Both the position numbers and the translations under genes were made by a program. DNA of 64,000 nt from a virus (Duplodnaviria > Heunggongvirae > Uroviricota > Caudoviricetes): the IMG/VR virus record IMGVR_UViG_3300035498_001143; one strand, 5' to 3'. This document shows, piece by piece, positions 9,945 to 49,715 of this stretch. Within the stretch, counting starts at the first letter, position 1, and each line of letters begins with the position of its first letter. Under the pieces are notes generated by a model, which was given only the letters and a program-made list of their open reading frames with translations, made no database searches and had not been told where the DNA came from.

Positions 9945-11270
9945 GGCTGGCGTGAAATTGTTGAAGCTCAAACAAGAGGTTATTATGATGAAGAAGGTAT
10001 TACTGTTAATATCAGTGTAATGAATGATGCTACTGATAGTTCTAATGCTTTAATTAGTGGAGATTTAGATGCAGCAGGTTATACTGTTAATAGATATGCT
10101 TTTTTAATGGATAAATTCAAGCAGAACAATGTTGATGTTGCAATGCCTATTATTATTAATAGAAGTAGTGGTGGTGATGGCATTATTGCTGATGCTGATA
10201 TCAATTCTATTAAAGATTTAGTAGGTAAAAAAGTTGGTGTTCCAAGATTTAGTGAAGCACAAACTTTAGTTGAATGGTTTGTTTCTAAGTCTGATTTAAC
10301 AGACGATGAAAAGAGTAAAATAGAATATGTATATTTTGATACACCTGACGAAGCTGCAAGTGCTTATTTCGCAGGTGAAATAAATGCTGCTGCTACTTGG
10401 CAACCATATTTAGCACAAGCACAAGAAAGTACAGATAGTCATATTCTTATTGATACAAGCAATGCTACAAGCCTTGTATTGGACGGTATTGTGTTTAGAC
10501 AGGATTATCTTGATGTAAATGCTGATACAGTTGAGAAGTTCATTAGAGCTACTTTAAAGGCTTATGATGATTACAACGATACTGATTATACAGCATTAAG
10601 AAATAATATGTCTATGTTTTCAAGTATGAGTGATGAAGAAATTGCTGATACATTACCTGATGCAACATTGTTAAATTGGAATGAAAATATGGAAGTATTA
10701 GCCGATGAAGCTGTTATTCTTTATAGAGATATGTCTAATATCTGGAATGATTTAGGAGAAACAGCTTATCCTGATATGGCAGAACAAGCATTTACTACTA
10801 CATATATGAGTGCTTGTGAAGATTTAAAAACTGCTGATATAAAAACTGTTTCAGTTACAGCAGAACAAAAGGAAGAAGTTAAGAATAACTCAGATAATTA
10901 TGATGCTTTAATAAATGCACAAGCAACAATTAACTTTAAGCCTAATTCAGCAGTATTTGCAGACCAAGAAGAAGCTGCTAAAGCATTAGACGAATTTGTT
11001 GATACGGCAAAAATGCTTGATGGTGCAATTATTATGATTGAGGGTAACTCAGCTAATACAAATGGTGCTACTGAAAATAGTGAGTTTGATATTAAGCTTA
11101 CCGAACAAAGAGCTAAGACTGTTGCTAATTATTTCATCAGTAAAGGTATTGATAATTCAAGATTTATTACAGTTGGTAATGGTATTGGTAATCAGATAGC
11201 TGATAACTCTACAGAAGAAGGTAGAGCTAAGAACAGAAGAACTGATATTAAATTTATTATAGCTGAATAA
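9945..11270 (+). CDS. exon 2 of the SBP-OmpA fusion: SsuA/NMT1-like periplasmic binding domain plus OmpA/MotB peptidoglycan-binding domain
   Basis: GWREIVEAQTRGYYDEEGITVNI matches the conserved N-terminal strand of the NMT1/SsuA fold. The C-terminal 110 aa carry the OmpA_C pattern NFKPNSAVF...LTEQRAKTV..Y...GI...R....G.G......EGRAKNRR. The reading frame is open from 9936. Confidence 0.65.
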   Translation, partial: GWREIVEAQTRGYYDEEGITVNISVMNDATDSSNALISGDLDAAGYTVNRYAFLMDKFKQNNVDVAMPIIINRSSGGDGIIADADINSIKDLVGKKVGVPRFSEAQTLVEWFVSKSDLTDDEKSKIEYVYFDTPDEAASAYFAGEINAAATWQPYLAQAQESTDSHILIDTSNATSLVLDGIVFRQDYLDVNADTVEKFIRATLKAYDDYNDTDYTALRNNMSMFSSMSDEEIADTLPDATLLNWNENMEVLADEAVILYRDMSNIWNDLGETAYPDMAEQAFTTTYMSACEDLKTADIKTVSVTAEQKEEVKNNSDNYDALINAQATINFKPNSAVFADQEEAAKALDEFVDTAKMLDGAIIMIEGNSANTNGATENSEFDIKLTEQRAKTVANYFISKGIDNSRFITVGNGIGNQIADNSTEEGRAKNRRTDIKFIIAE

Positions 11271-19440: not shown

Positions 19441-20397
19441 TTGATTTTAGAAAATCAAACAGTTGTTATTCAATGGACGGGTCGTAATAGAAAAAAATAT
19501 GAAGAATTAGGCTATGTTTTTACTAAATTTGGAAACCCGTTAGAAATTAAAGTAGAACATTTACATAAAGGTTCTCACGAAGAAGTTTGGTATGAATGTG
19601 ACAATTGTCATAAAAAAGATAAAAGAGAATATAGAAAACTTTTTAAACAAGATATACATTATTGTAAAAAATGTTGTACTATTAGACGAGAAGAAACTTG
19701 TATGAAATTATACGGAGTAAAAAACACATTTCAGAGTGAAGAAAAAAAAGAAAAAATAAAACAAACTTGTATAAAAAAATATGGAGTAGACAGTCCTTTA
19801 AAAAACAAAGAAATACACGACAAAGTAGAAGCAACTTGTATGAAAAAATATGGCGTAAGAAATACTTTTCAAGTAAAAGAGTTTCAAGAAAAAAGTAGAC
19901 AAACAATACTTGAACGATATGGAGAAGATTATTATAAAGAAAAAGCACTTACAATGATAAGAACTTTAAATAATAAAAATAGCTCAACAAGAACATCTAA
20001 TAATCAAGCAAATATTTGTGAATGGACGAATGGTACATTAAACTATAAAATAAGTAGGTATTCTTTGGATATTAGAATAAATGATAAATTATATATTGAA
20101 TACGATGGTTCAGGACATACATTACCTGTCATTTTAAAACAAGTTTCTAAAAAAGTTTTTAAGAAAAAAGAATTATATAGAAATAAATATATGGAAAATT
20201 TAGGATATAAACTTATAAGGGTTATTAATCGTCAAGATATTGATTTAGATAAGGATGAATTTTTAAAGTTATATAATTTCTGCACCGATTATCTTAAAAA
20301 TACAGATTATAAGTGGATAAAGATATATTATGATAAACGACTTGTTATAAGTAATATTTTTAAAAAAACTTTTGATGAGGTGATAAATAATGAGTAA
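19441..20397 (+). CDS. free-standing homing-endonuclease-like protein: zinc ribbon, three ~30-aa KKYGV-N-FQ repeats, C-terminal Vsr/DUF559-like PD-(D/E)XK nuclease domain
   Basis: N-terminal CDNCH...CKKCC. Three repeats of the pattern TC[IM]KKYGV[DRK][NS][PT][FL][QK]. C-terminal LYIEYDGSGH...YMENLGYKLIRV resembles the DUF559/Vsr endonuclease core. The TTG start overlaps the gyrB start. Confidence 0.45.
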   Translation: MILENQTVVIQWTGRNRKKYEELGYVFTKFGNPLEIKVEHLHKGSHEEVWYECDNCHKKDKREYRKLFKQDIHYCKKCCTIRREETCMKLYGVKNTFQSEEKKEKIKQTCIKKYGVDSPLKNKEIHDKVEATCMKKYGVRNTFQVKEFQEKSRQTILERYGEDYYKEKALTMIRTLNNKNSSTRTSNNQANICEWTNGTLNYKISRYSLDIRINDKLYIEYDGSGHTLPVILKQVSKKVFKKKELYRNKYMENLGYKLIRVINRQDIDLDKDEFLKLYNFCTDYLKNTDYKWIKIYYDKRLVISNIFKKTFDEVINNE

Positions 20398-21706
20398 TAA
20401 TTATGATGTTGGGCAAATATCTTCCCTCGAAGGATTAACTTCAATCCGTCTTAAACCATCTATGTATATAGGTTCTACGTCACAAGAAGGTGTAAATCAA
20501 TTAGTTTATGAAGTATGGGATAATGCTCTTGATGAATATGTTGCAGGTTATGGTAATGAAGTAAACGTAGTTATTGATAAAGAAAATTATATATCTATTG
20601 AAGACCACGGTAGAGGTATTCCTGTTGGACCTCATCCAACTTGGAAAAATCCTGATGGTACTCCACAAGATACATTGACAGGTGTCCTGACTCGCATCCA
20701 TGCAGGAAGCAAATTCACCCACGATGGAAATTCAGGGTATTTTTCAGGAATTTCTGGTACGTTCGGGGTTGGAACAAAGTGTAATGTTGCTTTATCTGAT
20801 GATTTTATAGTTAGAGTGAAAAGAAATGGCAACATATATCAACAAACATTTAGTAAAGGTAAACCTACTTCAGAAGTTGAAATTGTTGGGAATGTTGAAA
20901 AAAATGATACAGGTACAACGATTAAATTTCATCCTGACCCTACGATATTTAAAACAACAATTCAGCCAAATGATAGAAAATTACAAAACAGACTTGATGA
21001 AATAACTTCTTTAAATACAGAGTTGAAAATTAATTATAAAAATGAATTGGCTAACGTAGATACAACATTTTATTATCCTAATGGTATAGCTGATTATATA
21101 AATAAAAAGTTATTAAAAGATAAAAAACTTTTATTCGAAGAACCAATTTATTATGCAGGTGAATATACTGATAATGATGAAATTATTAAAGTTGAATTTT
21201 CTTTTATGTATGTTGATGATGTGGAAAGTAATGAAATTATTAAAACATTTGCTAATAATGTATCAACAAAAGAACACGGTACACATTTAGTAGGTTTTAA
21301 AGAGGGTTATAAAGAAGCTATTAATCAATATGCAATAAGTAAAAAATGGATAACCGAACCAATTGAGATTAAATATTTAATGGATAACATTTGTTTAATT
21401 GTATCTGTTAAGTTAAGAGAATGTGAGCTTGACGGACAAACAAAAAATAAATTAGGTAATTTAATAGCTAAAGATGGTGTTGCTAATGTTGTTAAAGAAT
21501 ACTTTAATAAGTTAAGTAAAGAACAACAAGTAGTAATACAAACAATAGTTGAAAGAGCTAATAAAGTAAAAGAAGCAGAAGAAGCTGCAAGGAGAGCAAG
21601 AATAAATACAAGGACTGCTAATAAAATAAAGAAGATAGCATTACCTGGCAAACTTGCTGATTGTAGTAGTAATAAAGGATATAGTGAATTATTCTTAGTT
21701 GAAGGA
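20390..21706 (+). CDS. gyrB: DNA gyrase/topo II subunit B, exon 1 (GHKL ATPase, transducer, start of toprim up to ELFLVEG)
   Basis: GHKL ATPase motifs (EVWDNALDE, DHGRGIP, GTFGVGTK) then LADCSSNKGYSELFLVEG; the frame stops 2 codons later. Confidence 0.85.
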
Positions 21707-22091
21707 GTAGCCTAAAGGCAGAAACTCCCTATTAAGTAGTAATATTTAATAGAAAATTTCTTTAATTGCTGGAAGTTCCTAAAATTAATTATACTATTAA
21801 AATGTTTAATAGTTGCGAAAGTAGAAAAAAATAATTAAACGATATATGGTGATAGTAAACCTAAGTATTATAAGAAATAATAATTTCTAAAAATGGATAA
21901 TCAGCAACAAAATATATAAATAAAAAATATATATGTTCAACGACTATGCTTTAAAAGCAGTAGGATAAAAGTTTATCCGAAATGGGAAAATACTTAATGT
22001 TTAAGTATATGATATAGTCTATGCACTAATGAAAGTTAGTGAAAAACTAAATGTTTTTATTATAGTTTAACAAACTATGGTTAATGTAATT
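21707..22091 (+). ncRNA. ORF-less group I intron (subgroup IA-like) in gyrB
   Basis: P AATTGCTGGAAG (21763-21774) and Q AATCAGCAAC (21900-21909) form a 7-bp P4. R GTTCAACGACTATGC and S ATGATATAGTCTATGC form P7. A CTCC internal guide 18-21 nt into the intron pairs with exon GGAG. The intron ends in G. Excision restores EG|DSAGG in frame. Confidence 0.7.
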
Positions 22092-22160: not shown

Positions 22161-22471
22161 TAAAGGATTTGCCTCTACATTTCTAACTGTTTAATATAAC
22201 AGGGTATGCTTAAAAACGATTTAAATGCGTTTTGAAGCTTGCTAACGAGGAAAGCTTAACATTATACATATAAGTCAAAATATGTTCAGGTGAAGTCAAT
22301 CTCGTGCGAAATATAGCGATTTAATAATTGCTGTTCGTGTATCGACTATCCTAAGTTAGATTAGGAGTACAGGTTTTATAAAACTTGGAAATGGAATGAC
22401 CGTTTTAAAAAGTTTGACAAACTTATAGGTTAAGAAATAGTCAGTGCTATTAGAAATAATAGATTATAATG
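22161..22471 (+). ncRNA. second intervening sequence in gyrB, probably a self-splicing intron of uncertain class
   Basis: 311 nt with stops in all frames. The upstream exon ends in U and the element ends in G, as expected for group I. GACTA (22349-22353) and TAGTC (22436-22440) could form P7, but no clear P/Q. Excision joins RGK|ILNTEKA in frame. Confidence 0.45.
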
Positions 22472-23026
22472 AAAATCCTTAATACTGAAAAAGCCAGTTT
22501 TGAAAAAGCATTAAATTCAGATGTTATTAAATCATTTATTGCTGCAATAGGAACAGGTATAGGTAAGAATTTTAATATAGATAAATGTAGATATGATAAA
22601 ATAATTATGATGACTGATGCGGACGTTGACGGTTATCATATCTCAAACTTAATTTTAACTTTTATATATAATTATATGAGACCTTTAATTGAAAATGGTT
22701 ATATATATTTAACAGTACCACCTCTTTATAAGGTTATTACCAAAAAGGAAAGTCTTTATATAAGAGATGATATTGAATTAAAAGAATATAAAAAGAAACA
22801 CCCAAGAGAAAATTTAGAAGTACAAAGATTTAAGGGATTAGGAGAAATGGATTACGAAGAACTCAAAGTCACTACAATGGACCCAGCAACAAGAGTGTTA
22901 GAAAAGATTGCTATTGATGATGTTGAAGAAATGGTAGAAGCATTTAATGTATGTATGGGAAGTAATGTAGAGATAAGAAGAAAATTCATTGAAGAAAACG
23001 CTCAGTCAGTAAATTTAGATAATTAA
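22472..23026 (+). CDS. gyrB: gyrB exon 3 (rest of toprim and C-terminal tail)
   Basis: ILNTEKA...IGTGIGKNFN...IIMMTDADVDGYHI...PPLYKV are canonical GyrB toprim motifs. Confidence 0.85.
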   Translation, partial: KILNTEKASFEKALNSDVIKSFIAAIGTGIGKNFNIDKCRYDKIIMMTDADVDGYHISNLILTFIYNYMRPLIENGYIYLTVPPLYKVITKKESLYIRDDIELKEYKKKHPRENLEVQRFKGLGEMDYEELKVTTMDPATRVLEKIAIDDVEEMVEAFNVCMGSNVEIRRKFIEENAQSVNLDN

Positions 23027-25341: not shown

Positions 25342-25365
25342 AAAAAACTACCCTCTATTTTTTAT
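25332..25365 (+). terminator. rho-independent terminator
   Basis: agagggtag...ctaccctct plus T7. Confidence 0.6.
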
Positions 25366-25439
25366 TCTCCTAAAAGTTTATTTATTTCTTCCAATCTTGC
25401 AAGTAACTTGTTCTTTTCTTCGATAAGTTTATCTCTATC

Positions 25440-25599
25440 ATTTACTTTCCAATATATTAGTATTAATACGAACTATGAGAAATTTTATGTTGAGGGTACA
25501 GCGACATTTACTTTCCAATATATTAGTATTAATACCCTTTAATGATATATTGATTTGATTATCATTTGTATTTACTTTCCAATATATTAGTATTAATAC
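25440..25599 (-). CRISPR. mini CRISPR-like array A: 3 identical 30-nt repeats, spacers of 36 and 34 nt; transcribed leftward from the leader at 25600-26034
   Basis: Repeat ATTTACTTTCCAATATATTAGTATTAATAC at 25440-25469, 25506-25535 and 25570-25599. The minus-strand form GTATTAATACTAATATATTGGAAAGTAAAT ends in ...GTAAAT like clostridial type I-B repeats. The spacers are unique. Confidence 0.55.
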
Positions 25600-26034
25600 A
25601 CGTTCAGTATACAGCAGTATTTTTTATCGATATTTCAAATACCAATATTGTCGAACCTATTGAAAAGTTGATTTCAAACATTATTCTTTATTCATCATTT
25701 ACTTTATTCTCACAAAAACATAAGTAAACAAAGTGTTTTCAAACTTTCTGTCTATCTCTTAGTAATTTTACATTACTATACATCGACAGAATTGAAAAAC
25801 TAAAAAAATAAAAAGTATTCATACCATATATTGAATTTGGTGAGTGGTGGGCTACTACTCGTCATTTTTGGTGTAGTCTTAAAATTCTACAGCGGTGTTG
25901 AACTGTATGTGATATGAGTTACCCTCACCCTACGGACGGCAAATCGCCCGAAGTCACCAATTAAGGTGCTTATAAAAAAATGATTTTAAAAACTTACAAT
26001 ATTATAATATCACAACTACTTTTATTTGTCAAGT
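25600..26034 (-). promoter_or_regulatory. conserved ~430-bp CRISPR leader with distal consensus promoter (TTGACA 26032-26027, TATTAT 26009-26004, minus strand) and a proximal TTGAAA/TATACT-like promoter next to the first repeat
   Basis: About 90 percent identical to 42549-42990, which follows array B. Contains a 9-bp inverted repeat (aattctgtc/gacagaatt) and a GC-rich segment. Confidence 0.5.
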
Positions 26035-26100
26035 GTTTTTTAGTAATTTTATGGTTTAATTTGTTTATTATTTAAATAAAAAATATAAGGAGTAATTGAA

Positions 26101-32117: not shown

Positions 32118-33215
32118 ATGATTAATTTAATAAATGGTGATTGTCTTGAAAAAATGAAAGATATACAAGATAAGTCAATAGATTTAATTCTGTGCGATTT
32201 GCCTTATGGTACTCAAAAAAGTAATGGTTGTAAATGGGATATAATTATTCCTTTTGACAAACTATGGGAGCAATATAATAGAATCATAAAAGATGATGGT
32301 GCTATTGTTTTATTCGGAAAAGAACCTTTTAGTTCTTTATTAAGAGCGAGTAATTTAAATATGTATAAATATGATTGGATATGGAGTAAAGATACCAAGA
32401 GTAATTTTATGCAGTGTAATTATCAACCATTAAATAATTTGGAATGTATATCTGTGTTTTCAAAGGCTTACGCAAGAGAAATAAAAGATAAAGTAAAAAT
32501 GAAATACAATCCTCAATTTTCAGAGGGAGATAGTTATAAACTCCCAAAAGAAAGTAGTACGACAGAAATATTTAGTTCTAATCATAAAAACGGTAAATAC
32601 ATACATAAAGATAGAGATACATCAAAAAGATACCCATATAATACATTATTCTTTAATTCTGTAAAAGGAAAAGAAAAAATACATCCTACACAAAAACCAA
32701 TTGATTTATTAGAGTATTTAATAAAAACATATACAGATGAAAATGATTTAGTATTAGATAACTGTATGGGAAGTGGAAGTACAGGTATTGCTTGTATTAA
32801 TACTAATAGAAATTTTATAGGAATAGAAAAAGATATTGATTTTTATATAAAGGCGAGTAATAGAATAGAAGACCATAAAAATAGCATTTTATTAACTCAA
32901 GCAGTAAATGTAACTATTGATTGTATTAACGAAGATTATGAAGAATATGATGAAAATTACAATGAAGAAAATATTCAAGATTTTGAAATAAATTGTTTTG
33001 AATTGCCTAAACGTGATATTGATGATATTGCAGGAAATGAAATACAATTAGGAAATAATTATTTTTTTCGAGAACCTGAACAATTAGATAAAGTAGAATT
33101 TATTTCGTTTAAAAAACCTGATGATGAATATTTAGAACCACTTAATTCTGAAAGATTTGAAAATATTTTTGTAAAAGAAAGGTTTTATGAAGAAAAACCT
33201 TTAGAAAGGAAATAA
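32118..33215 (+). CDS. N4/N6 DNA methyltransferase, beta class, with acidic C-terminal extension
   Basis: N-terminal DLILCDLPYGT (catalytic) and C-terminal HPTQKP...DNCMGSGSTGIAC (SAM binding), the circularly permuted beta order. Confidence 0.75.
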   Translation: MINLINGDCLEKMKDIQDKSIDLILCDLPYGTQKSNGCKWDIIIPFDKLWEQYNRIIKDDGAIVLFGKEPFSSLLRASNLNMYKYDWIWSKDTKSNFMQCNYQPLNNLECISVFSKAYAREIKDKVKMKYNPQFSEGDSYKLPKESSTTEIFSSNHKNGKYIHKDRDTSKRYPYNTLFFNSVKGKEKIHPTQKPIDLLEYLIKTYTDENDLVLDNCMGSGSTGIACINTNRNFIGIEKDIDFYIKASNRIEDHKNSILLTQAVNVTIDCINEDYEEYDENYNEENIQDFEINCFELPKRDIDDIAGNEIQLGNNYFFREPEQLDKVEFISFKKPDDEYLEPLNSERFENIFVKERFYEEKPLERK

Positions 33216-38890: not shown

Positions 38891-40925
38891 AAATTTTGAT
38901 GGAGACCAATATGCTGCTTATAGATATACAGAAGGCAGATTACATAAAAATGCAATGGAATTATTAAGTGGTCTTGAAGAAAAATGTGTTCCATTTCACC
39001 CCAATTTTAGTGAAACAACAGAAGAACCAGAAGTATTACCTGGTTTATTGCCTAATTTGCTTGTAAACGGCTCATACGGCATTGCAGTTGGCTATACAAC
39101 CAATTTCCCCTCACACAACCTTTCAGAGGTTATAGACGGTATTATAAAGGTTATACAGAACCCTGATGCTACATTAAAAGATATAATGAAATATATAAAA
39201 GCACCTGATTTTCCTTTAGGTAGTCTTTTGGTAGATGATGGTAATATTGAAAAATTATATACAGAAGGTAAAGCAAGTTTAACATTCTTATCTAAGTATA
39301 CTATTGAGGAAAATTCTGAAAATAAGAATCCTCAAATAATTTTTCACGAAATACCACCTACTGTTAATAAACCTAAACTTGTTGAAAAAATATACGAAGT
39401 CTGTATAGATAAAAAACAAGTACCAAGGGTTGTTGATATAAGGGATGAATCAAATGGTGAAGCAGGTATTAGAATTGTAGTTGAATTACATAAAACAGCA
39501 ATAGTAGATATTGTTTTATCTGAATTGTTTAAAAGAACAGATTTAAAGAAATCTAATTCATATATTTTAAGATGTATTGATGATAAAATTCCAAAGGTTT
39601 TATCTTTAAAAGAAATAATTGAAAAGTACATTGAATTTCATAAGGAAGTATATATTAGTAAATATACTAATATGTTAGCCAAAGTAAATAAAAAACTTCA
39701 TATTCAAGAGGGCTATAAAAAGATTTTAACTAATATTGATAAAGCAATTGATATTATTAGAAAATCTGATGATGATAAGGTTGCTAAAGCTAAATTAAAA
39801 GACGAATTTGATTTAACAGATGAGCAGGCAGAAGTAATTCTTGATATGAAATTAAGAAATATTACTAAGTTAGCTTCTAAAGATATTGATACGACTATTC
39901 AAGAGTATAAAGATAAAATTGCTACTTATACAGATATTATTTCAAATGATGATTCTTTAAATAATGTTTTAATAAACGATTTGAAAGATTTGAAAAAACG
40001 TCTTGGCGATAGTAGAAAAACTGAAATAGTCCATGATGTTGCTACTCAAATAGTTCAGAGTGTTGAAAAAGATGTAATGTTAGTCTTAACTAATAAGAAT
40101 AATATCAAACATTATGAAGTAGATACTTATGAAGAAATGATAGCGAAAGGCTATAAGGAGAAATCTGAAATATTCTTACAGTCTGTTAAAATAAATACTA
40201 ATGATAAAGTATTATTGATTTTAAATAATTGTAAATATATTTGTTTAGAATTTAATGATTTATTAGGTAATATAAGTTCATTAATAGATAAGCAGGCAAT
40301 TAAAACTATTATTCCTTTAACAGAAAACAATATGAAGAAAGTTATCTTTGTTATGACGAAAAAAGGGTTAATTAAAAAATGCTTTGTTGAAAAGATTAAA
40401 TATAAGAAGAAATTAGCTCCTCTTATGGAAATTGATGAAGAAGATAATGTAATAAAGGTTGATTTAATAGATAATAATGAAAATAATGTTATTACTGTTG
40501 CTTCACAAGATGGTTTAATACATAGATTCTTTGTTAATTCATTTAAAGAAACATCAGCAGGCGGTAAAGGATTAAGTAGTATGTCATTACAAGATAGTAA
40601 TATAGTTGATTTTATTATTTCTGATAAAAGTAATGATGAGAATAATCAATTAATTATTTATGCTATAAATGAAAATAATTATATGATTAAGAAAATACCT
40701 TTAAAGGAATTTTTAGTCAAGGGTAGAATAGCAAAAGGTGTTAAATCTATAAACTTTACTACAAAAAGTCCTGGCGAGATATATAAAATATTTATTACTG
40801 ATAAAGATTTTTCAATTATAAACAACAAGGGCATATTACAAGAAATAAAATTAGATAGTATAAAAGAAAGCACTAAAGCAACCAAGGGTGAAAATATAGA
40901 TTACGATGTTTTATATATAAAATAA
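38891..40925 (+). CDS. gyrA: gyrA exon 2 (active-site Tyr region, tower, C-terminal domain)
   Basis: NFDGD...RYTE..L...PNLLVNGSYGIAVGYTTNFPSHNL matches the GyrA/ParC breakage-reunion domain. The frame is open from 38892. Confidence 0.8.
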
Positions 40926-40931
40926 TTATTA

Positions 40932-40967
40932 AAGGCTCACAAATTAAGATTTTGTGAGTCTTTTTTT
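40932..40967 (+). terminator. rho-independent terminator
   Basis: aaaggctcacaaa...tttgtgagtcttt plus T7. Confidence 0.6.
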
Positions 40968-41004
40968 ATATATAAAATATAAAAAGAAAGGACTGTATAT
41001 AAAA

Positions 41005-41505
41005 ATGATTATAAATAGAGTATGGTCAATGCCTAACAGTAACACTTTTTCAATAAAGCCTATCAAAGAAATTATAAATAAATACGCTTTTGGTAAAATT
41101 ATAGACCCTTTTGCTAATGATAGTAAAATTGCAACTATTACTAATGATTTAGATATATCTCACGATACTGATTATCATTTAGATGCTACTGATTTTTTAA
41201 AGATGTTTGAAGACAATTCTATTGATACTGTTTTATATGACCCACCTTATTCTCCACGTCAAGTTTCTGAATGTTATAAGAAGTTAGGACAAACAGTAAA
41301 TATGCAAACAACACAAGCTTCTTACTGGTCACTTCAAAAAGAGCAAATAGGAAGAATTGTAAAACAAAATGGTATAGTGATAACTTGTTGTTGGAACTCA
41401 GGCGGTATTGGTAAAAAATATGGTTTTGAAATAGAAGAAATATTGTTAGTACCACATGGCGGTTGGCATAATGATACTATTGTAACAGTAGAAAGAAAAA
41501 AGTAG
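41005..41505 (+). CDS. small DPPY-motif DNA (adenine) methyltransferase
   Basis: LYDPPYSPRQ catalytic motif in a 166-aa protein; the ORF-track start is moved to the ATG with RBS after the terminator. Confidence 0.55.
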   Translation: MIINRVWSMPNSNTFSIKPIKEIINKYAFGKIIDPFANDSKIATITNDLDISHDTDYHLDATDFLKMFEDNSIDTVLYDPPYSPRQVSECYKKLGQTVNMQTTQASYWSLQKEQIGRIVKQNGIVITCCWNSGGIGKKYGFEIEEILLVPHGGWHNDTIVTVERKK

Positions 41506-41514
41506 GTGTAATAT

Positions 41515-42099
41515 GTGGCTAAGATAGAAAATGATAAGTATTATACACCTGATGATTTAGCAAAATACTGTGTAGAAAAAGCAAATGAAATAATAGGTGT
41601 TGATAATATAATTAGTTATATAGAACCATCAGCAGGAGCAGGGGCGTTTATTAAATATTTTAATAAAGATTATTTAGCAATAGATATTCTTCCTGAACAC
41701 GAAAGAGTCATTGAACAAGATTTTTTGACTTTAAATCTTTCTTACAAGAAAGGTAGAATGATAATAGGCAATCCACCGTATGGTAGAAATATGTCTTTAG
41801 CTCAAAAATTCTATAAGAAATCAATAGAGCTTGCAGATTATATAGCTTTTATATTGCCTATTTCACAATTAAATAATACTAATTCTTTATATGAATTTGA
41901 TTTAATATATAGTGAGGACTTGGGAATAAGAACATATTCAAATATTGATTTACATTGTTGCTTTAATATTTACAAAAGACCTGAAAACGGGTTAAATAAA
42001 AAGGAAAGTATTAAATTAAAAGATATAACTATTTATAGACAAGATAAAAAAGGTTATGATAATTTAGATTTTGATATAAGAATGTGCTACTGGGGGTAA
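41515..42099 (+). CDS. N6-adenine DNA methyltransferase, gamma-like (NPPY)
   Basis: YYTP...EPSAGAGAF (SAM) then IIGNPPYGR (catalytic). Confidence 0.7.
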   Translation: MAKIENDKYYTPDDLAKYCVEKANEIIGVDNIISYIEPSAGAGAFIKYFNKDYLAIDILPEHERVIEQDFLTLNLSYKKGRMIIGNPPYGRNMSLAQKFYKKSIELADYIAFILPISQLNNTNSLYEFDLIYSEDLGIRTYSNIDLHCCFNIYKRPENGLNKKESIKLKDITIYRQDKKGYDNLDFDIRMCYWG

Positions 42100-42118: not shown

Positions 42119-42307
42119 TTGAAAGATAACGAACACTATTCTGCTGAATATAAAATAAAAATAAACAATGATGAACTAAAAGAAGAAATAATAAATGTTT
42201 TAAGTAGTTTCGATTGGAAAAGTTATTTAAATTGTATTGCAGCAAGAAAGATACAGCAGTTTCATATTATTGATGTTTTAAAAAATAATATACCCAAAAT
42301 AAAGTAA
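42119..42307 (+). CDS. hypothetical protein
   Basis: ORF. Confidence 0.3.
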   Translation: MKDNEHYSAEYKIKINNDELKEEIINVLSSFDWKSYLNCIAARKIQQFHIIDVLKNNIPKIK

Positions 42308-42330
42308 GAGGCTTAAATGCCTCTTTTTAT
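42306..42330 (+). terminator. rho-independent terminator
   Basis: aagaggcttaaatgcctctt plus T run. Confidence 0.55.
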
Positions 42331-42400: not shown

Positions 42401-42548
42401 ATTTACTTTCCAATATTTCAATATTAATACCTTAAAAACAACTTAAAAAAACAGATTACCTCGAATTTACTTTTCAATATAGTAGCATTAATACTTTGGT
42501 GATTACACAAACAGTACATTTACTTTCCAACATATTAGTATCAATACC
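42401..42548 (-). CRISPR. mini CRISPR-like array B: 3 diverged copies of the same 30-31-nt repeat, spacers of 34 and 23 nt
   Basis: Repeats at 42401-42431, 42466-42495 and 42519-42548 match array A at 24-27 of 30 positions. It is followed by the same conserved leader (42549-42990). Confidence 0.4.
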
Positions 42549-42978
42549 CGTTTAGTATGCAGTAGTACATTTTATTAGTATTTCAAATACTAAATCTGTC
42601 GAACTCATTGAAAAAGTTAATTTCGAATATTATTTTTTATCCATTATTTACTTTATTCTCACAAGAACATAAGTAAATAAAGTGTTTTCAAAATTCTGTC
42701 TATCTCTTAGCAATTTTACACTACTATACATCGACAGAATTTAAAAACTAAAAAAATAAAAAGTATTTATACTATATATTGAATTTGGTGAGTGGTTGGC
42801 TTCTTCCGTCAAAGCGGTGCAAGTCTTAAAATTCTACAGCAGTGTTGAACTGTATGTGATATGAATTACCCTCACCCTACGGACGGCAAATCGCCCGAAG
42901 TCACCAATTAAAGTGCTTATAAAAATAGTTCTTAAAAACTTACAATATTATAATAACATATTATTTTCTGTTTGTCAA
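42549..42978 (-). promoter_or_regulatory. second copy of the conserved CRISPR leader with distal minus-strand promoter (TTGACA 42978-42973, TATTAT 42955-42950)
   Basis: About 90 percent identity to 25600-26034, including the inverted repeat and the GC-rich segment. Confidence 0.5.
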
Positions 42979-43024
42979 GTATTTTTTATTAGAAAAATAA
43001 ATTTTAAGAGATGAGTGTGATTTA

Positions 43025-43879
43025 ATGAATAATTTAATTCCACCTTGTTCTTATCAAGGCGGCAAACAAAGACTTGCAAAACAAATTGTAGATATTATAT
43101 ATAAAGAAAATAATATTGATGAAAATACAAAATTTTTTGATATTTGTTGTGGTAGCGGAGCTGTTAGTTTAGAGTTAATAAATAATAACTTTAATTCTAA
43201 TAACATTACAATGATTGATATAAATATTTTTGGACTTTTCTATGAATATGTTTCTAAAAATAAATTTGATTTAAATATTTTTAAAGAAGAAATAGATAAA
43301 TTACCTGATAAAGAATACATACAACTTTATTTAAAACAATTAAGTGATTTACCTATTGATGAAGAAAAATTAGTATATCAATATTTATTGTTGCAGGCAG
43401 GTAGTTTTGGAAGTAAACAAATTTATATAAAAGATAATAAATGGAAGAATAACACGTTTAGAAATTATTGGCAACCTACTAAGAGTAGTAATAGAAAAAG
43501 TCCTGTCAATCCCATGATGCCGATGCCTGATACGTTATTTGAAAGAGTAGAAAATATTGTAAATAAATTAAGTGGTAAGATTGTTGCATACAATGATGAT
43601 ATTTTTAATATATTAAATATTTTTTCCAATTTAGATAATAATGTTATTATTTACATTGACCCACCGTACTCAAACACGACAAAATATAAAGATAGTTTTG
43701 ATGTTTATGAATTGATTGATAAGTTAAAAAACATAAATGATTTTACTATTTATATATCAGAAGGCGTTGAATTGAACAATGCTAAAAACACATATTTACT
43801 TTCAAGAGGTAGAACTAAAGGTAATATTAGTGGTAATGTAACTAAAAAGCCTGTTGAAGAATGGTTAAATAAATTCTGA
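43025..43879 (+). CDS. Dam-like (D12-class) N6-adenine DNA methyltransferase
   Basis: YQGGKQRLAK...CCGSGAV and IYIDPPY. Confidence 0.7.
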   Translation: MNNLIPPCSYQGGKQRLAKQIVDIIYKENNIDENTKFFDICCGSGAVSLELINNNFNSNNITMIDINIFGLFYEYVSKNKFDLNIFKEEIDKLPDKEYIQLYLKQLSDLPIDEEKLVYQYLLLQAGSFGSKQIYIKDNKWKNNTFRNYWQPTKSSNRKSPVNPMMPMPDTLFERVENIVNKLSGKIVAYNDDIFNILNIFSNLDNNVIIYIDPPYSNTTKYKDSFDVYELIDKLKNINDFTIYISEGVELNNAKNTYLLSRGRTKGNISGNVTKKPVEEWLNKF

Positions 43880-43906: not shown

Positions 43907-44239
43907 ATGAAATACAAACCAACAATTAAAGAATACTTAACTTGGATAAAAGAAGATATAAAAAGATTATATTATTTAATACGTTATTTTACAAAGGCAT
44001 TATTTAATGTAGATAAAAATATTTTATTAAGTAAAGATTTTAAAGTGGATAGTTATATTATTACTTTTCATTCTGACGATTATAGCGGAGCTTGTTATGA
44101 TGAAAGAAGATTTGATAATTTTAAAGACGCTTATGAACTTTACGAATTAAGTAAAAATCAAAAATGTAGAGAAGATTTTGTAAGATTGCATATTTCGATT
44201 GAATATATTGGAAATATAGAAATAGCAAGATATAAATAA
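43907..44239 (+). CDS. hypothetical protein
   Basis: ORF. Confidence 0.35.
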   Translation: MKYKPTIKEYLTWIKEDIKRLYYLIRYFTKALFNVDKNILLSKDFKVDSYIITFHSDDYSGACYDERRFDNFKDAYELYELSKNQKCREDFVRLHISIEYIGNIEIARYK

Positions 44240-44659: not shown

Positions 44660-45097
44660 ATGATGAAAAAAATAAAATTGTGGATTTATAATTTTATTGT
44701 TAATGCTATCGCTGCTGATGACGATTTAAATTTAACAGGTAAGCAAAGAAGTCAATTATTTAGTCTAACTAATAAATTTAAAGTTAGAAATTGTAAAAAG
44801 AATTTAATTTATATAAGTCATCCTTATCAAGATAAAAAAGAAAATATTGAGGATATAGAAAAAATCATCAATAACTTGGTGAAGAAATATGATGAATATA
44901 CATTTGTTTCTCCTGTTCATTGTTTTGGATTTATGTATACAACTGTTTCTTATGATAGAGGGTTAGATTTTTGTCTTGATTTATTAGATTGCTGTGAACA
45001 AATGTGGGTGTTTGGTACTTATACAAATAGTATAGGTTGTACTAAAGAGATTGAATATTGTATTACAAATAATATTAAATATAAAATTTTTAGTTGA
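44660..45097 (+). CDS. hypothetical protein (nucleoside 2-deoxyribosyltransferase-like fold is a weak guess)
   Basis: YISHPY...VFGTY...G pattern only. Confidence 0.3.
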   Translation: MMKKIKLWIYNFIVNAIAADDDLNLTGKQRSQLFSLTNKFKVRNCKKNLIYISHPYQDKKENIEDIEKIINNLVKKYDEYTFVSPVHCFGFMYTTVSYDRGLDFCLDLLDCCEQMWVFGTYTNSIGCTKEIEYCITNNIKYKIFS

Positions 45098-45907: not shown

Positions 45908-45932
45908 GTGAATAACTTTCTAAGGGAAAAAA

Positions 45933-46693
45933 TGATGAATGAGTATGAATTGTATAATGATGATTGTTTAGAACAAATGAAAAATATTGATGATAAATCT
46001 ATTGATTTGATATTAACTGATTTGCCATACGGTACTACTAATTGTAAGTGGGATTCAATTATACCATTAGATTTATTATGGGAACAATATAATAGAATTA
46101 TTAAAGATAATGGAGCGATTCTTTTGTTTGCACAAACACCATTTGATAAGATATTGGGTTGTTCTAATTTAAAAATGCTGAGATATGAATGGATATGGGA
46201 AAAGACACAAGCAACAGGACATTTCAATGCTAAGAAAATGCCTATGAAAGCCCACGAAAACATATTAGTATTTTATAAAAAATTGCCTACATACAATCCT
46301 CAAAAAATCCAAGGGTGTAAGCCTGCACACGGAGCTGTAAGAAAAGCAGAAGTTGGTAACAAAACACAAATATATGGAAAAGTAAAAGAAGATTCTGTTT
46401 ATGAAGGTGGTAATACAGATAGATACCCTCGTTCTGTAATAATATTTGCTTCCGATAAACAAACTTGTTGTTTACACCCTACACAAAAGCCTGTTGCTTT
46501 ATGTGAATATTTAATTAAAACATATTCTAATGAAAATGATATAGTCTTGGATAGCTGTATGGGGAGTGGAACTACAGGAATAGCTTGTTTAAATACTAAT
46601 AGAAAATTCATAGGAATTGAAAAAGAAAAACAATATTTTGATATAGCTAAAAAAAGAATTGATGATTTTTTAAAGGAGAAAAACATTGAGTAA
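45933..46693 (+). CDS. N4/N6 DNA methyltransferase, beta class (paralog 1)
   Basis: DLILTDLPYGTT then HPTQKPVALCEYLI...DSCMGSGTTGIAC. Confidence 0.75.
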
Positions 46694-47438
46694 TTATGAA
46701 ATTTACAATGATGATTGTTTAGAAAAAATGAAAGATATTTCTGATGAAAGTATAGATATGATTCTTTGTGATTTGCCTTATGGAACAACAGCTTGTAAAT
46801 GGGATATAATTATCCCTTTCAATAAGTTATGGGAACAGTATGAAAGAATAATAACGAATACAGGTGTAATTTGTTTATTCGGACAAGAACCATTTTCAAG
46901 TATGTGTAGAATGAGTAATTTAAATTTATATAGATATGATTATGTATGGCAAAAACAAAAACCAAGTAATTTTCAATTGATGAATTATCAATGTGGTAGA
47001 GTTCACGAAAATATAATGATTTTTAGTAAAGCAAAGGCTTGTTATACTAAAAATGGTGCTAAAATAAATTATTTTCCAATAATGGAAAAAAGAGAAAAAG
47101 TAAGAAAAGCTAATGCTAAAATTTATAATAATGGTAAAGCAGACTTATTACATAATTACAAAACAGAAGATAATTTCAAAACCTATGAAGAAAAACACCC
47201 TATTTCTATTTTAAAATTTAACGCAGTAGAGCATAGAGTTCATCCAACTCAAAAGCCTATTGATTTATTAGAATATCTAATTAAAACATTTACTAAAGAG
47301 AATATGACTGTATTAGATAATTGTATGGGTAGTGGTAGTACGGGTGTTGCTTGTTTAAATATAAATAGGAATTTCATAGGGATAGAGAAAGAGAAGAAAT
47401 ATTTTGATATCGCAAAGGACAGATTAAAAGATGTTTGA
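46686..47438 (+). CDS. N4/N6 DNA methyltransferase, beta class (paralog 2)
   Basis: DMILCDLPYGTT then HPTQKPIDLLEYLI...DNCMGSGSTGVAC. Confidence 0.75.
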   Translation: MSNYEIYNDDCLEKMKDISDESIDMILCDLPYGTTACKWDIIIPFNKLWEQYERIITNTGVICLFGQEPFSSMCRMSNLNLYRYDYVWQKQKPSNFQLMNYQCGRVHENIMIFSKAKACYTKNGAKINYFPIMEKREKVRKANAKIYNNGKADLLHNYKTEDNFKTYEEKHPISILKFNAVEHRVHPTQKPIDLLEYLIKTFTKENMTVLDNCMGSGSTGVACLNINRNFIGIEKEKKYFDIAKDRLKDV

Positions 47439-48183
47439 AAATTGTAATTATGAATTATTTCACGGTGATTGTTTAGAGGTAATGAATAATTTAATAAATA
47501 ATAATATAAAAGTTGATTTAATTTTAACAGATTTACCTTATGAAACAACAAAATGTAAATGGGACATTTTAATTCCTTTTGAAGATTTATGGGATAGATA
47601 TAATAAATTAACAGAAGATAATACACCTATTGTTTTATTTGGGCAAGAACCTTTTAGCTCTTTATTAAGAACAAGTAATTTAGAAAATTACAAGTATGAT
47701 ATTTATTGGGAAAAAGAAAGATTAACTAATATAAATCAAGTTAAAAAAAGAGTAGGAAAAACTGTTGAAACTATTTCTATCTTTTATAAAAAACAATGTA
47801 TTTACAATCCTCAAATGATTAAATATGATGGTAAACCGAGAAGTAATAAAGTAAAGAATGGTAAATTAGGAAAATTAACTGATGATAATGAAAAGAAAGT
47901 ATTTGAATATAAAGATACAGGGTGGAGATATCCTACACAAGTTTGGAAATATCAAAGAGATTGTCTAACTTCTAATTTACATCCTACTCAGAAACCAATT
48001 AAGTTATTAGAAGATTTAATAAAAACTTTCTCTAACGAAAATGCAATCGTATTAGATTCTTGTATGGGTTCAGGTAGCACAGGAGTTGCCTGTTTAAATA
48101 CTAATAGAAAATTTATAGGCATAGAGAAAAATGATGAATATTTTGATATAGCAAAGAAAAGAATTGAGGAGCTTGTTTTATGA
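47431..48183 (+). CDS. N4/N6 DNA methyltransferase, beta class (paralog 3)
   Basis: DLILTDLPYETT then HPTQKPIKLLEDLI...DSCMGSGSTGVAC. Confidence 0.75.
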   Translation: MFENCNYELFHGDCLEVMNNLINNNIKVDLILTDLPYETTKCKWDILIPFEDLWDRYNKLTEDNTPIVLFGQEPFSSLLRTSNLENYKYDIYWEKERLTNINQVKKRVGKTVETISIFYKKQCIYNPQMIKYDGKPRSNKVKNGKLGKLTDDNEKKVFEYKDTGWRYPTQVWKYQRDCLTSNLHPTQKPIKLLEDLIKTFSNENAIVLDSCMGSGSTGVACLNTNRKFIGIEKNDEYFDIAKKRIEELVL

Positions 48184-48929
48184 AATATTTTGGTAGTAAA
48201 AGTAGAATAGCAAAACAAATAATACCCATAATTCAGGAGTACATTGATAAGGGTAATTTTGATACATATATTGAGCCTTTTTGTGGCGGTGCAAATGTAA
48301 TAGATAAAATAGATTGTAAAAATAAAATTGGTTATGATTTAAACAAATATTTAATTGCATTATTAAATTATGTAAAAGACGGTGGAGAATTATATTCATC
48401 AGTAGATAAAGATTTATATGATAAAGCAAGAACAGCTTTTTATAATGATGACAATTCCACATTTACTGATTGGCAAATTGGTAATATTGGTTTTCTTGCT
48501 TCTTATAATGGTCGTTTTTATGATGGTGGTTATGCAAAGCCCGTATATGAAAAAACTAAAAAGGGCACAAGATATCGTGATTATTACAAAGAGGGTAAAG
48601 ATAATTTACTTAATCAAGCCCCTGATTTGAAAGATGTTAAATTTATAAATAAAGATTATAAAGATATAATTCTTCCTGATGATTGTTTAGTATATTGTGA
48701 CCCACCGTATAAGAATACTAAAAAGTTTTACATAGATAAGAATTTTGATTATGATGCTTTTTGGAATAAAATAAGAGAATGGAGTAAAGACCATATTGTT
48801 TTAGTTAGTGAACAAGAAGCACCTAATGATTTTGTTTCTATATGGGAAAAAGATGTAAATAGAAGTATTAATGTTAATAACAAATTTAGTGCAACTGAAA
48901 ATATGTTCATACATAAAAGTTTAACGTGA
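48180..48929 (+). CDS. Dam-like (D12-class) N6-adenine DNA methyltransferase
   Basis: YFGSKSRIAK...YIEPFCGGANV and VYCDPPY. Confidence 0.75.
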   Translation: MKYFGSKSRIAKQIIPIIQEYIDKGNFDTYIEPFCGGANVIDKIDCKNKIGYDLNKYLIALLNYVKDGGELYSSVDKDLYDKARTAFYNDDNSTFTDWQIGNIGFLASYNGRFYDGGYAKPVYEKTKKGTRYRDYYKEGKDNLLNQAPDLKDVKFINKDYKDIILPDDCLVYCDPPYKNTKKFYIDKNFDYDAFWNKIREWSKDHIVLVSEQEAPNDFVSIWEKDVNRSINVNNKFSATENMFIHKSLT

Positions 48930-48938
48930 GGAAAAATA

Positions 48939-49715
48939 ATGGAAATAAATAAAGTTTATAATATGGATTGTTTAGAGTTATTAAAAACAATAGATAAAAA
49001 TTCAATAGATTTAATTCTTATAGACCCACCATATTTAATTAGTCGTGATAGTCATTTTACCCAAGGTGCTAAAAATGATGAAATGAAAAGTAAATATGGA
49101 AAACATAAAATAGATTTTGGTGATTGGGATAAAGGAGAATTAAATCTTCAAAACATATTATCTGAAAGTTATAGAATATTAAAAGACAATGGTACTTTAA
49201 TAATGTTTTATGATTTTTGGAAAATGCAAGAAGTAAAAGAAACTGCTGAACAAATAAAATTTAAGCAACCAAGGTTAGGTATATTTAATAAAACTAATCC
49301 TGTACCTGTAAATGCTAAAATTAATTATTTATCTAATGCGAAAGAATTTTTTGTTACTTTTGTAAAGAAGTCAAAACCAACTTTTAATTCTTATTACGAT
49401 AATGCAGAATATTATTTATCTGAAAATTCAGAAGAAGCAGATACATATTATTTTCCAATAGTACACGGTAAAGAAAGAACTAAACACCCTACTCAAAAAC
49501 CATTATCTTTAATAAAAGATTTAATAAAGAAACATAGTAATGAAGATGATATAGTATTAGATTTCTTTGCAGGTAGTGGTACAACAGGAGTAGCTGCTTC
49601 TGAATTAAATAGAAATTATATATTATGTGAAATAAATAAAGAATATTATGAAATAATCAAAGAAAGATTATCTAAAGAAGAATTATCCAAAAAACCTTCT
49701 AAAGATATAAATTAA
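48939..49715 (+). CDS. N4/N6 DNA methyltransferase, beta class
   Basis: DLILIDPPY then HPTQKPLSLIKDLI...DFFAGSGTTGVAA. Confidence 0.75.
   Translation: MEINKVYNMDCLELLKTIDKNSIDLILIDPPYLISRDSHFTQGAKNDEMKSKYGKHKIDFGDWDKGELNLQNILSESYRILKDNGTLIMFYDFWKMQEVKETAEQIKFKQPRLGIFNKTNPVPVNAKINYLSNAKEFFVTFVKKSKPTFNSYYDNAEYYLSENSEEADTYYFPIVHGKERTKHPTQKPLSLIKDLIKKHSNEDDIVLDFFAGSGTTGVAASELNRNYILCEINKEYYEIIKERLSKEELSKKPSKDIN

Follow-up and report, generated by a model that had tools for sequence, protein, structure and literature searches.

In the work of Al-Shayeb et al. 2020, huge phages with genomes above 200 kb reportedly carry compact CRISPR arrays, some of them without cas genes, which are thought to target competing phages; to our knowledge, neither a multi-copy structured leader nor kin-targeting of linked genes was described there. 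A close parallel is found in the Sulfolobales viruses SPV1 and SPV2, whose cas-less arrays with promoter-bearing leaders lie in viral intergenic regions; these viruses carry different spacers at the same position, target each other, have mutated self-alleles, and their targets lie near the array, an arrangement that was interpreted as CRISPR-mediated heterotypic superinfection exclusion via host Cas, with the proximity of the targets left unexplained (Medvedeva et al. 2019, PMC6858448). Phage mini-arrays and solitary repeat units are also known, and, in the outline given of them there, some spacers target adjacent genes in close kin and not in the carrier (ref. 58 of PMC6858448). Type I-B arrays are found in prophages and phages of Clostridioides difficile as well, e.g., phage CDKM15 (Boudry et al. 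2015, PMC4556805). Here, we analyzed a stretch of 64,000 nucleotides (nt), hereafter the window, from IMG/VR virus record IMGVR_UViG_3300035498_001143 (Caudoviricetes), which contains two modules, A and B, each made of an array and a long leader. The analysis suggested that array B, located with its leader at 42401-42978, is a virus-borne, cas-less type I-B mini-array of a clostridial repeat family that is used against kin megaphages, and we give this reading a probability of about 0.7. The structured RNA in the leader, without described counterpart, is the new element here.

The consensus repeat is 30 nt long (ATTTACTTTCCAATATATTAGTATTAATAC on the plus strand), and on the minus strand, which is the functional strand of modules A and B, it reads GTATTAATACTAATATATTGGAAAGTAAAT; its general form can be written GTATT-N14-GGAAAGTAAAT. 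Array A has three exact copies starting at 25440, 25506, and 25570 (span 25440-25599), with spacers of 36 and 34 nt. Array B has three copies starting at 42401, 42465, and 42518 (span 42401-42547), with two to three mismatches each, and no occurrence of the repeat at the mismatch level of either array is expected in shuffled sequence. From the leader outward, and all on the minus strand, array B is composed of repeat R1 (GTATTGATACTAATATGTTGGAAAGTAAAT, 42518-42547), spacer B1 (23 nt, GTACTGTTTGTGTAATCACCAAA, 42495-42517), repeat R2 (GTATTAATGCTACTATATTGAAAAGTAAAT, 42465-42494), which is the most degenerate, spacer B2 (34 nt, 42431-42464), and repeat R3 (GTATTAATATTGAAATATTGGAAAGTAAAT, 42401-42430). 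Both loci thus have the regularly spaced repeats of 28-37 nt and the unique spacers of a CRISPR array, the 23-nt spacer being atypical. The first-pass annotation had described three diverged repeats with 24-27 of 30 identical positions, spacers of 34 and 23 nt, and a leader ~90 percent identical to that of array A, at two loci 17 kb apart. The diverged copies and the spacer lengths were found as described, with a slightly better repeat identity (27-28 of 30); the leaders are indeed homologous, at a slightly lower 86.5% over ~432 nt, and the arrays are separated by 16,961 nt. The flank at 42548-42991 aligns to 25600-26045, and array plus flank showed 82% identity over 611 nt (BLAST, E = 4e-166). 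This similarity is not confined to low-complexity AT sequence, because it includes a 130-nt block with 45% GC in a window with 25.8% GC. Within the window, BLAST and the covariance model described below detected just these two copies of the module.

The repeat is identical at 24 of 30 positions to the type I-B repeat of Clostridium tetani (GTATTAGTAGCACCATATTGGAATGTAAAT), with equal length and the same ends, and the C. tetani repeat belongs to a cas6-cas8-cas7-cas5-cas3-cas4-cas1-cas2 locus. The 3' end of the phage repeat, GGAA[T/A]GTAAAT, is common to C. difficile I-B repeats, and the arrays of both groups have 29-30-nt repeats with this ending, a 5'-CCW protospacer-adjacent motif (PAM), and a variant leader-distal repeat; moreover, the C. 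difficile phages also lack cas genes, and their arrays have a sigma-A promoter and a transcribed leader. The start of the repeat, GTATT..., is as in C. tetani and unlike C. difficile. The Rfam CRISPR-DR families gave no match for the repeat. No cas gene was found by Pfam among 22 open reading frames (ORFs) of the window, which included the largest ones and those flanking arrays A and B, or among the 10 largest ORFs of a 15-kb locus around array C, a further module seen in relatives. When all 91 window ORFs were compared with PADLOC and PHROGs, no cas was present among the 25 most-matched families, which were dominated by methyltransferases, a comparison that does not amount to a full screen. 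Since no cas gene, adjacent or otherwise, was detected in the parts screened, i.e., 22 window ORFs and the 10 largest ORFs of the array C locus, the arrays are considered orphan. An endolysin near array C carries a Cu_amine_oxidN1 domain, and this, together with the 26% GC, we take as suggesting a clostridial host.

Among the relatives of this phage, the IMG/VR viral contigs measure 180-379 kb, and a contig from the Joint Genome Institute (JGI), Ga0484759_000001, reaches 502,690 nt; the genome is therefore regarded as megaphage-like. Relatives are present in samples 3300035501, 3300035502, 3300036769, 3300043080, 3300043081, 3300043101, and 3300043105, and the sister genomes are ~94% identical at the nucleotide level. 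At the B site, the flanks of the relatives are 93.5-94% identical to those of the window, and the same promoter, RNA block, and leader are present, followed by an array with two identical repeats and a degenerate third, in which both spacers are entirely different from those of the window. At the A site, the relatives have a 193-aa minus-strand gene with a similar promoter (L055:11409-11990). Alignment to this gene showed that 78 nt of its 3' end, equivalent to 26 codons including the stop, are retained in the window (25362-25439, minus strand), directly following the last repeat of array A, and at the junction, as read from the sequence, the gene (ATTGAAGATAAAACT) has microhomology to the end of the repeat (ATTGGAAAGTAAAT). 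Because the gene is intact at the A site of the relatives and the remnant persists in the window, A is recognized as a recent copy; judged from these alignments, B is the ancestral, orthologous locus, and A is a derived, young copy that overwrote a gene. The earlier proposal of a recent duplication with loss of function therefore held in that the modules are paralogous and one of them is recent, but the view of B as the decaying duplicate is not supported: an orthologous array occupies the same site in the sister genomes, and the direction of the presumed decay is reversed.

That array B is nevertheless a non-functional, decaying relic of a duplicated array is an alternative we consider doubtful, even if some of its features would fit. 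The three repeats differ among themselves, spacer B2 has no detectable target, and there are real signs of damage, namely the three private changes in R2 and the length of only 23 nt of spacer B1. However, besides the conservation of the locus and the novelty of A, the divergence of the repeats probably has another source. In relatives, a further array, D, has nine repeats in two variants and eight spacers, and a single nucleotide separates R1 from the leader-proximal D repeat and R3 from the main D variant; the changes that the first-pass annotation took for accumulating mutations are thus for the most part established variants, probably moved between arrays by recombination. At positions where the genomes diverge, leader copies of the same genome resemble one another, a sign of gene conversion. 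Moreover, the promoter, RNA domain, and leader of B are intact, all three repeats retain the 3' AAAGTAAAT, the covariance model of the RNA domain gave 160 bits (E = 7e-35) on B and 146 bits on A, and spacer B1 fits a gene of the sister strain except at positions 6 and 12, beside a CCT PAM. On this view, array B belongs to a family of type I-B mini-arrays carried by viruses; it has suffered some damage, and it may be active.

The spacer targets bear on the proposed use against kin. We compared 22 spacers with the window and eleven relatives' loci, and the L055 locus and two spacers from the window phage's own array D were examined later. Spacer B1 matched the DUF7768 gene of the relatives (L018:18255-18277) at 21 of 23 positions, with mismatches 6 and 12 and a CCT PAM. 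The allele carried by the window itself (protospacer 45011-45033, 45011-45036 with the CCT PAM, minus strand), which lies in ORF 44660-45097 (DUF7768, Pfam), matched at 18 of 23, with mismatches 1, 6, 12, 16, and 17; in type I complexes, every sixth position is unpaired. In the opposite direction, spacer 2 of the sister strain's B array (relB2) matched the window at 30 of 34 positions (E = 4e-8; mismatches 3, 4, 6, and 16), at a protospacer with a CCA PAM (43919-43955, of which 43922-43955 is the protospacer, plus strand) in ORF 43907-44239, and its own genome at 28 of 34, with the PAM mutated to CTA. Each of these two spacers, therefore, fits the other lineage better than its own (21/23 versus 18/23 and 30/34 versus 28/34). 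The third target belongs to relC8, the oldest spacer of array C in a relative, which is discussed below. All three protospacers have 5'-CCW in the spacer-sense orientation in at least one genome, and because the frequency expected by chance is ~1.25% per site in a genome with 26% GC (estimate), CCW at three of three is unlikely to be fortuitous; the PAM position also confirms the orientation of the arrays independently. CCW is the PAM of C. difficile type I-B, in a study where a position-6 mismatch inside the seed was allowed (PMC4556805). All three targets are less than 2.5 kb from the array carrying the matching spacer, and the orthologous B and D loci have entirely different spacers between genomes that are ~94% identical. 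Four features are thus common to these phages and SPV1/SPV2: a shared locus with different spacers, reciprocal targeting between sisters, mutated self-alleles, and nearby targets. The differences are that SPV1 and SPV2 are 20-kb archaeal viruses, and here the carrier, a megaphage with a genome of at least 503 kb, is bacterial and probably clostridial, with four modules per genome, up to eight spacers per array, and a ~430-nt leader with a structured RNA domain.

These matches also bear on the idea that array B is an RNA decoy, i.e., an RNA anti-CRISPR, or a regulatory mini-array of the CreA/CreR kind. Degenerate repeats, one short spacer, a strong promoter, and the lack of detected cas genes would be in line with such a role, but the matches are full-length and PAM-flanked, as is typical of immune spacers, no spacer is partially complementary to its own promoter or to a window site beyond chance, the arrays of the sisters carry eight normal spacers, and CreTA/CreR loci lie within cas operons, none of which was detected in the parts screened here. 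We regard this idea as very improbable.

The leader of module B begins with a predicted promoter (42950-42978, minus strand) composed of TTGACA, a 17-nt separation, and a TG-extended TATTAT overlapping TATAAT, with a consensus score of 11/12. The same promoter, recognized by its match to the consensus, is present in module A at 26004-26032 (minus strand) and in all related modules; module A as a whole occupies 25440-26032 on the minus strand, with its RNA domain at 25833-25969 upstream of the exact repeats. On the minus strand, the promoter is followed by a GC-rich block, a U-run, a long hairpin, AT-rich hairpins, the repeats, and a bidirectional terminator. The promoter, the inverted repeat, and the GC-rich block that had been listed as shared by A and B are present in both. 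The inverted repeat is the long imperfect hairpin (42686-42747, minus strand), with 18-nt arms that are 83% complementary, and two B-specific changes in it yield G-U pairs on the minus-strand RNA only. Closer to the array, 25-45 nt 5' of the first repeat, a 19-nt palindrome or hairpin (42575-42593, minus strand) overlaps a possible proximal promoter; two of its pairs covary across module copies, which is compatible with an RNA hairpin or a protein operator alike. A bidirectional terminator hairpin was predicted past array B (42306-42325), and between promoter and array the predictions gave no terminator-like site for the minus strand, so the array and its ~400-nt leader are probably co-transcribed, as far as prediction can tell. 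The polarity is that of a CRISPR locus, with the promoter at the leader end and a degenerate or truncated repeat at the opposite end, as in arrays B, C, and D of the relatives and array D of the window phage. The phage mini-arrays mentioned above are described as having no leaders (ref. 58 of PMC6858448), and here every array has a long conserved leader.

A type I toxin-antitoxin system beside the array was considered and rejected. In systems of this kind next to C. difficile CRISPR arrays, a conserved small hydrophobic ORF lies opposite an antisense RNA. Here, a 28-codon hydrophobic plus-strand ORF without a ribosome-binding site is found in copy A alone, and in B and the relatives a 1-nt indel shortens it to 16 codons with an unrelated end. 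Copy A also has a unique variable arm (25838-25864) that contains a terminator-like hairpin and T-run on the plus strand, absent from B and the relatives.

The GC-rich block corresponds to a structured RNA domain of ~135 nt with 45% GC (42781-42916, minus strand), which occurs in every leader of these phage arrays. Its fold was derived from six sequence variants, the A, B, and D copies of the window phage and the B, C, and D copies of the relatives. The domain is composed of a 5' hairpin (P0), in which one pair varies among C-G, U-G, and U-A; a hairpin invariant across the six variants (P2); an invariant 9-bp long-range helix (P1') formed by GGUGAGGGU and ACC-CACUCACC; a hairpin in two parts (P4), four pairs of which covary; and a variable arm (P5), wholly replaced in copy A. 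In the six variants, 98.1% of the cells pair, versus 36-50% when the 3' partners were slid. Six pairs are changed on both sides, a number reached by 6 of 500 shuffles, and the covariation score was 0.171 versus 0.067 in shuffles, none of 500 reaching the observed value, and at most 0.091 in the slid controls; structure and covariation were both taken from the same six closely related sequences of two genomes. Substitutions compatible with G-U pairing are consistent with the minus strand only. The single-sequence folding energy did not reach significance in the copies of the window (z = -1.4 and -1.6), and it did in the copy from relatives (z = -3.0).

Two earlier assignments within this domain were discarded. 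The GC-rich block is not coding sequence, because the frame is not conserved, and a first closing helix, UUGGUGA/UCACCAA, was dropped, as the D copy of the window phage has its 5' strand in a covarying local hairpin. Comparisons with other RNAs suggested that the domain is confined to this phage clade, where all matches of the covariance model were found. Rfam gave no match at the gathering threshold in the 64 kb and, over the domain, only sub-threshold chance matches (E ≥ 0.9), and a search for tRNA and tmRNA found none. With the covariance model, the domain was absent from the leaders of C. difficile phages and from five other IMG/VR loci found by the pattern GTATT...GGAA[T/A]GTAAAT, three of which hold arrays with such repeats. 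Homology to the C. difficile leader was also rejected on a local alignment score of 24 versus 22.8 ± 3 in shuffles; those leaders measure 170-200 nt and have no sequence or covariance-model similarity to the leader described here, the two having only a loosely similar multi-branch fold in common.

The 3' tail of the domain (AUUCAAUAUAUAGUAUAAAUAC, 42763-42784, minus strand) is complementary to nt 1-23 of the repeat, and a U-run (42749-42762) follows it. The 22-nt tail would form a duplex of about -17 kcal/mol (-16.6) with the repeat, and since a TnpB/Cas12f-like ORF is present in the window (8608-9759), domain and tail could be imagined as a trans-activating CRISPR RNA (tracrRNA)-like molecule for a type V or II effector. 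This role is unlikely because the pairing is unexceptional in an AT-rich genome, where ~3% of 400-nt tiles pair equally well with the repeat, and because the tail does not covary with it: a change in the array C repeat weakens the duplex and is not compensated. Moreover, the repeat opens with a 10-nt palindrome; repeat length, spacer length, repeat family, and the 5'-CCW PAM all indicate type I-B; and the TnpB-like ORF is 16 kb away, with no effector adjoining modules A, B, or C. We judged it extremely improbable. Our best guess, weakly held, is that the domain acts in cis on the stability or read-through of the precursor CRISPR RNA (pre-crRNA).

Collectively, the repeat family, array orientation, CCW PAM, matches of the sister strains to each other, turnover of spacers at orthologous sites, and folded leader domain are the observations on which the use of array B against kin phages is built, and from them we infer how it could work. 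Each module would be transcribed on its own strand from a sigma-70-type promoter, giving a transcript with the ~400-nt leader, including the ~135-nt structured domain, and then the array. The pre-crRNA would be processed and loaded by the type I-B Cas6, Cascade, and Cas3 of the host, and the mature crRNAs would attack co-infecting megaphages that are close kin, resulting in heterotypic superinfection exclusion. The carrier would escape through the seed or PAM differences of its own alleles, and new spacers would enter at the leader end via host Cas1-Cas2-Cas4 or arrive by recombination between arrays.

Several results weigh against this reading. Of the 22 spacers set against the clade sequences, only 3 have a target, and neither of the two spacers of the window phage's array D has one, so that 21 of 24 spacers have no target in the sequence compared, and a BLAST search of 14 spacers against a public phage collection gave chance matches only (E ≥ 2). 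Spacer B1, with 23 nt, is shorter than the usual 34-37 nt, and one of the three private substitutions in R2 adjoins the expected Cas6 cut site. A genome scan for the 3' end of the repeat gave three chance matches outside CRISPR loci and no host array; a metagenome scan gave only chance matches of 66-72% GC. The covariation comes from six closely similar sequences of two genomes, and copies within one genome homogenise each other. Finally, relC8 matches its own genome at 34 of 35 positions, with a mismatch at position 3 and an intact CCA PAM, and the only visible protection there is this seed mismatch and a truncated terminal repeat. The target of relC8 is the phage's own helicase gene (L024 6716-6750), which contains a LAGLIDADG domain indicative of an intein or homing endonuclease.

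The near-perfect self-match of relC8 would fit a capture of arrays or spacers from host arrays by recombination, the spacers being a host memory of the phage, put up with only in places where the phage allele has escaped, and the targeting of kin a by-product. In the case of phage mini-arrays, exchange with those of the host by recombination has been proposed (PMC6858448); the spacers fit the phage clade itself with a proper PAM, and the arrays do recombine, as indicated by the D-like repeats in B and one contig that joins C to B. On the other side, the spacer of each lineage fits the other lineage better than itself, targets within 2.5 kb of the carrying array are not predicted by acquisition in a host, and the conserved long leader is a requirement of leader-directed acquisition. 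We consider capture from the host quite unlikely as the explanation of these arrays, and it is compatible with their use against kin, the two not being mutually exclusive.

There is a bolder, linked pair of proposals, which, taken together, we hold to be unlikely: that the domain represents a new class of CRISPR-leader RNA and that the arrays behave like homing elements. As for the first, the RNA could be a cis switch, antiterminator, or stabiliser that raises crRNA output, or it could regulate repeat processing through its tail. As for the second, since the known targets are within 2.5 kb of the carrying array, the rival allele would be cut beside the homologous site and repaired from the array-bearing genome, so that the array and its linked immune alleles would spread.

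At least four cas-less modules (A, B, C, and D) are present in this megaphage-like genome. The C and D loci were found by pattern scans in relatives. Array C has eight exact repeats plus a truncated ninth, with spacers of 34-36 nt, ~7 kb beyond the left end of the window. Module D starts ~130-170 nt past the right end of the window, with its RNA domain from ~170 nt on the plus strand, and the D copy that belongs to the window phage itself, obtained from another sample (L059), has two repeats with exactly the sequence of those of A, a degenerate third, and spacers different from those of the relatives. In contig L043 (JGI 3300043081, 19 kb), at 1381-2501, the flank of C (amidase, MerR) and its spacers are joined to the promoter and methyltransferase gene of the B side; either the assembly is chimeric across the identical leader, or the modules have undergone a real deletion or recombination of ~55 kb. 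Because the relatives differ at single bases, four exact-pattern scans of IMG/VR, in which the RNA core and the repeat served as patterns, gave no match, and a BLAST search with the module against phage and plasmid collections gave no match. An unrelated viral contig with 40% GC (L046, IMG/VR 3300045988_003072) has seven repeats (GTATTAATAGAAACATTGTGGAATGTAAAT) at 10240-10718, and the sequence just 5' of the first of them is similar to the fifth spacer of the same array.

As for the genomic context, the source contig measures 75.7 kb, and the identical sequence was found in two JGI samples, 3300035497 and 3300035499, and one SRA run, SRR11792607. No virion genes were found in the window, so the label of phage is owed to the IMG/VR classification. 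Among the window's products are gyrase/topoisomerase subunits, an SbcC-like protein, a ClpX-like ATPase, RNase H, and a TnpB-like protein, and its PHROG matches include replication and methylase genes. DNA methyltransferases, of which the window encodes at least seven, are unusually dense around the arrays, where 6-7 window ORFs match such families in PADLOC and PHROGs; five are tandem ORFs of ~250 aa (45908-49715, plus strand), and 32118-33215, 40954-42099, and 43025-43879 also belong to the methylase set. Methyltransferase homologues with 64-68% identity led to unrelated phages without the module, and a flanking 259-aa ORF is an ORFan. The TnpB/Cas12f-like ORF (383 aa, plus strand), with OrfB_IS605, Cas12f1-like TNB, and HTH domains, is located in the interval from array C to array A. 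GyrB is apparently split into an ATPase/GyrB ORF (20390-21715, plus strand) and a Toprim/GyrB_C ORF (22469-23026, plus strand), ~750 nt apart, with no ORF of 60 aa or more and no Rfam match at the gathering threshold between them; the split could be due to an intron or a mobile insertion. The GyrA-like ORF (38955-40925, plus strand) begins at position 102 of 432 of the Pfam profile, and its N-terminal part seems to be missing or separately encoded upstream. In relatives, an insertion of ~2.2 kb just 3' of gyrA (L015 11979-14164 versus window 40932-40968) is absent from the window phage.

Given the parallels with SPV1/SPV2 and the C. difficile arrays, these modules thus represent, in a bacterial megaphage, a phenomenon that is already known. 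They provide a natural case in which sister strains carry spacers against each other and the carrier's own alleles escape by PAM or seed, and module A, having overwritten a gene, captures the birth of a new array. The leader RNA, supported by covariation, is directly testable for an effect on how stable the pre-crRNA is, how it is read through, or how it is processed. CRISPR-based conflict between viruses, documented in small archaeal viruses, would extend to a bacterial megaphage of more than 500 kb with four leader-bearing arrays.

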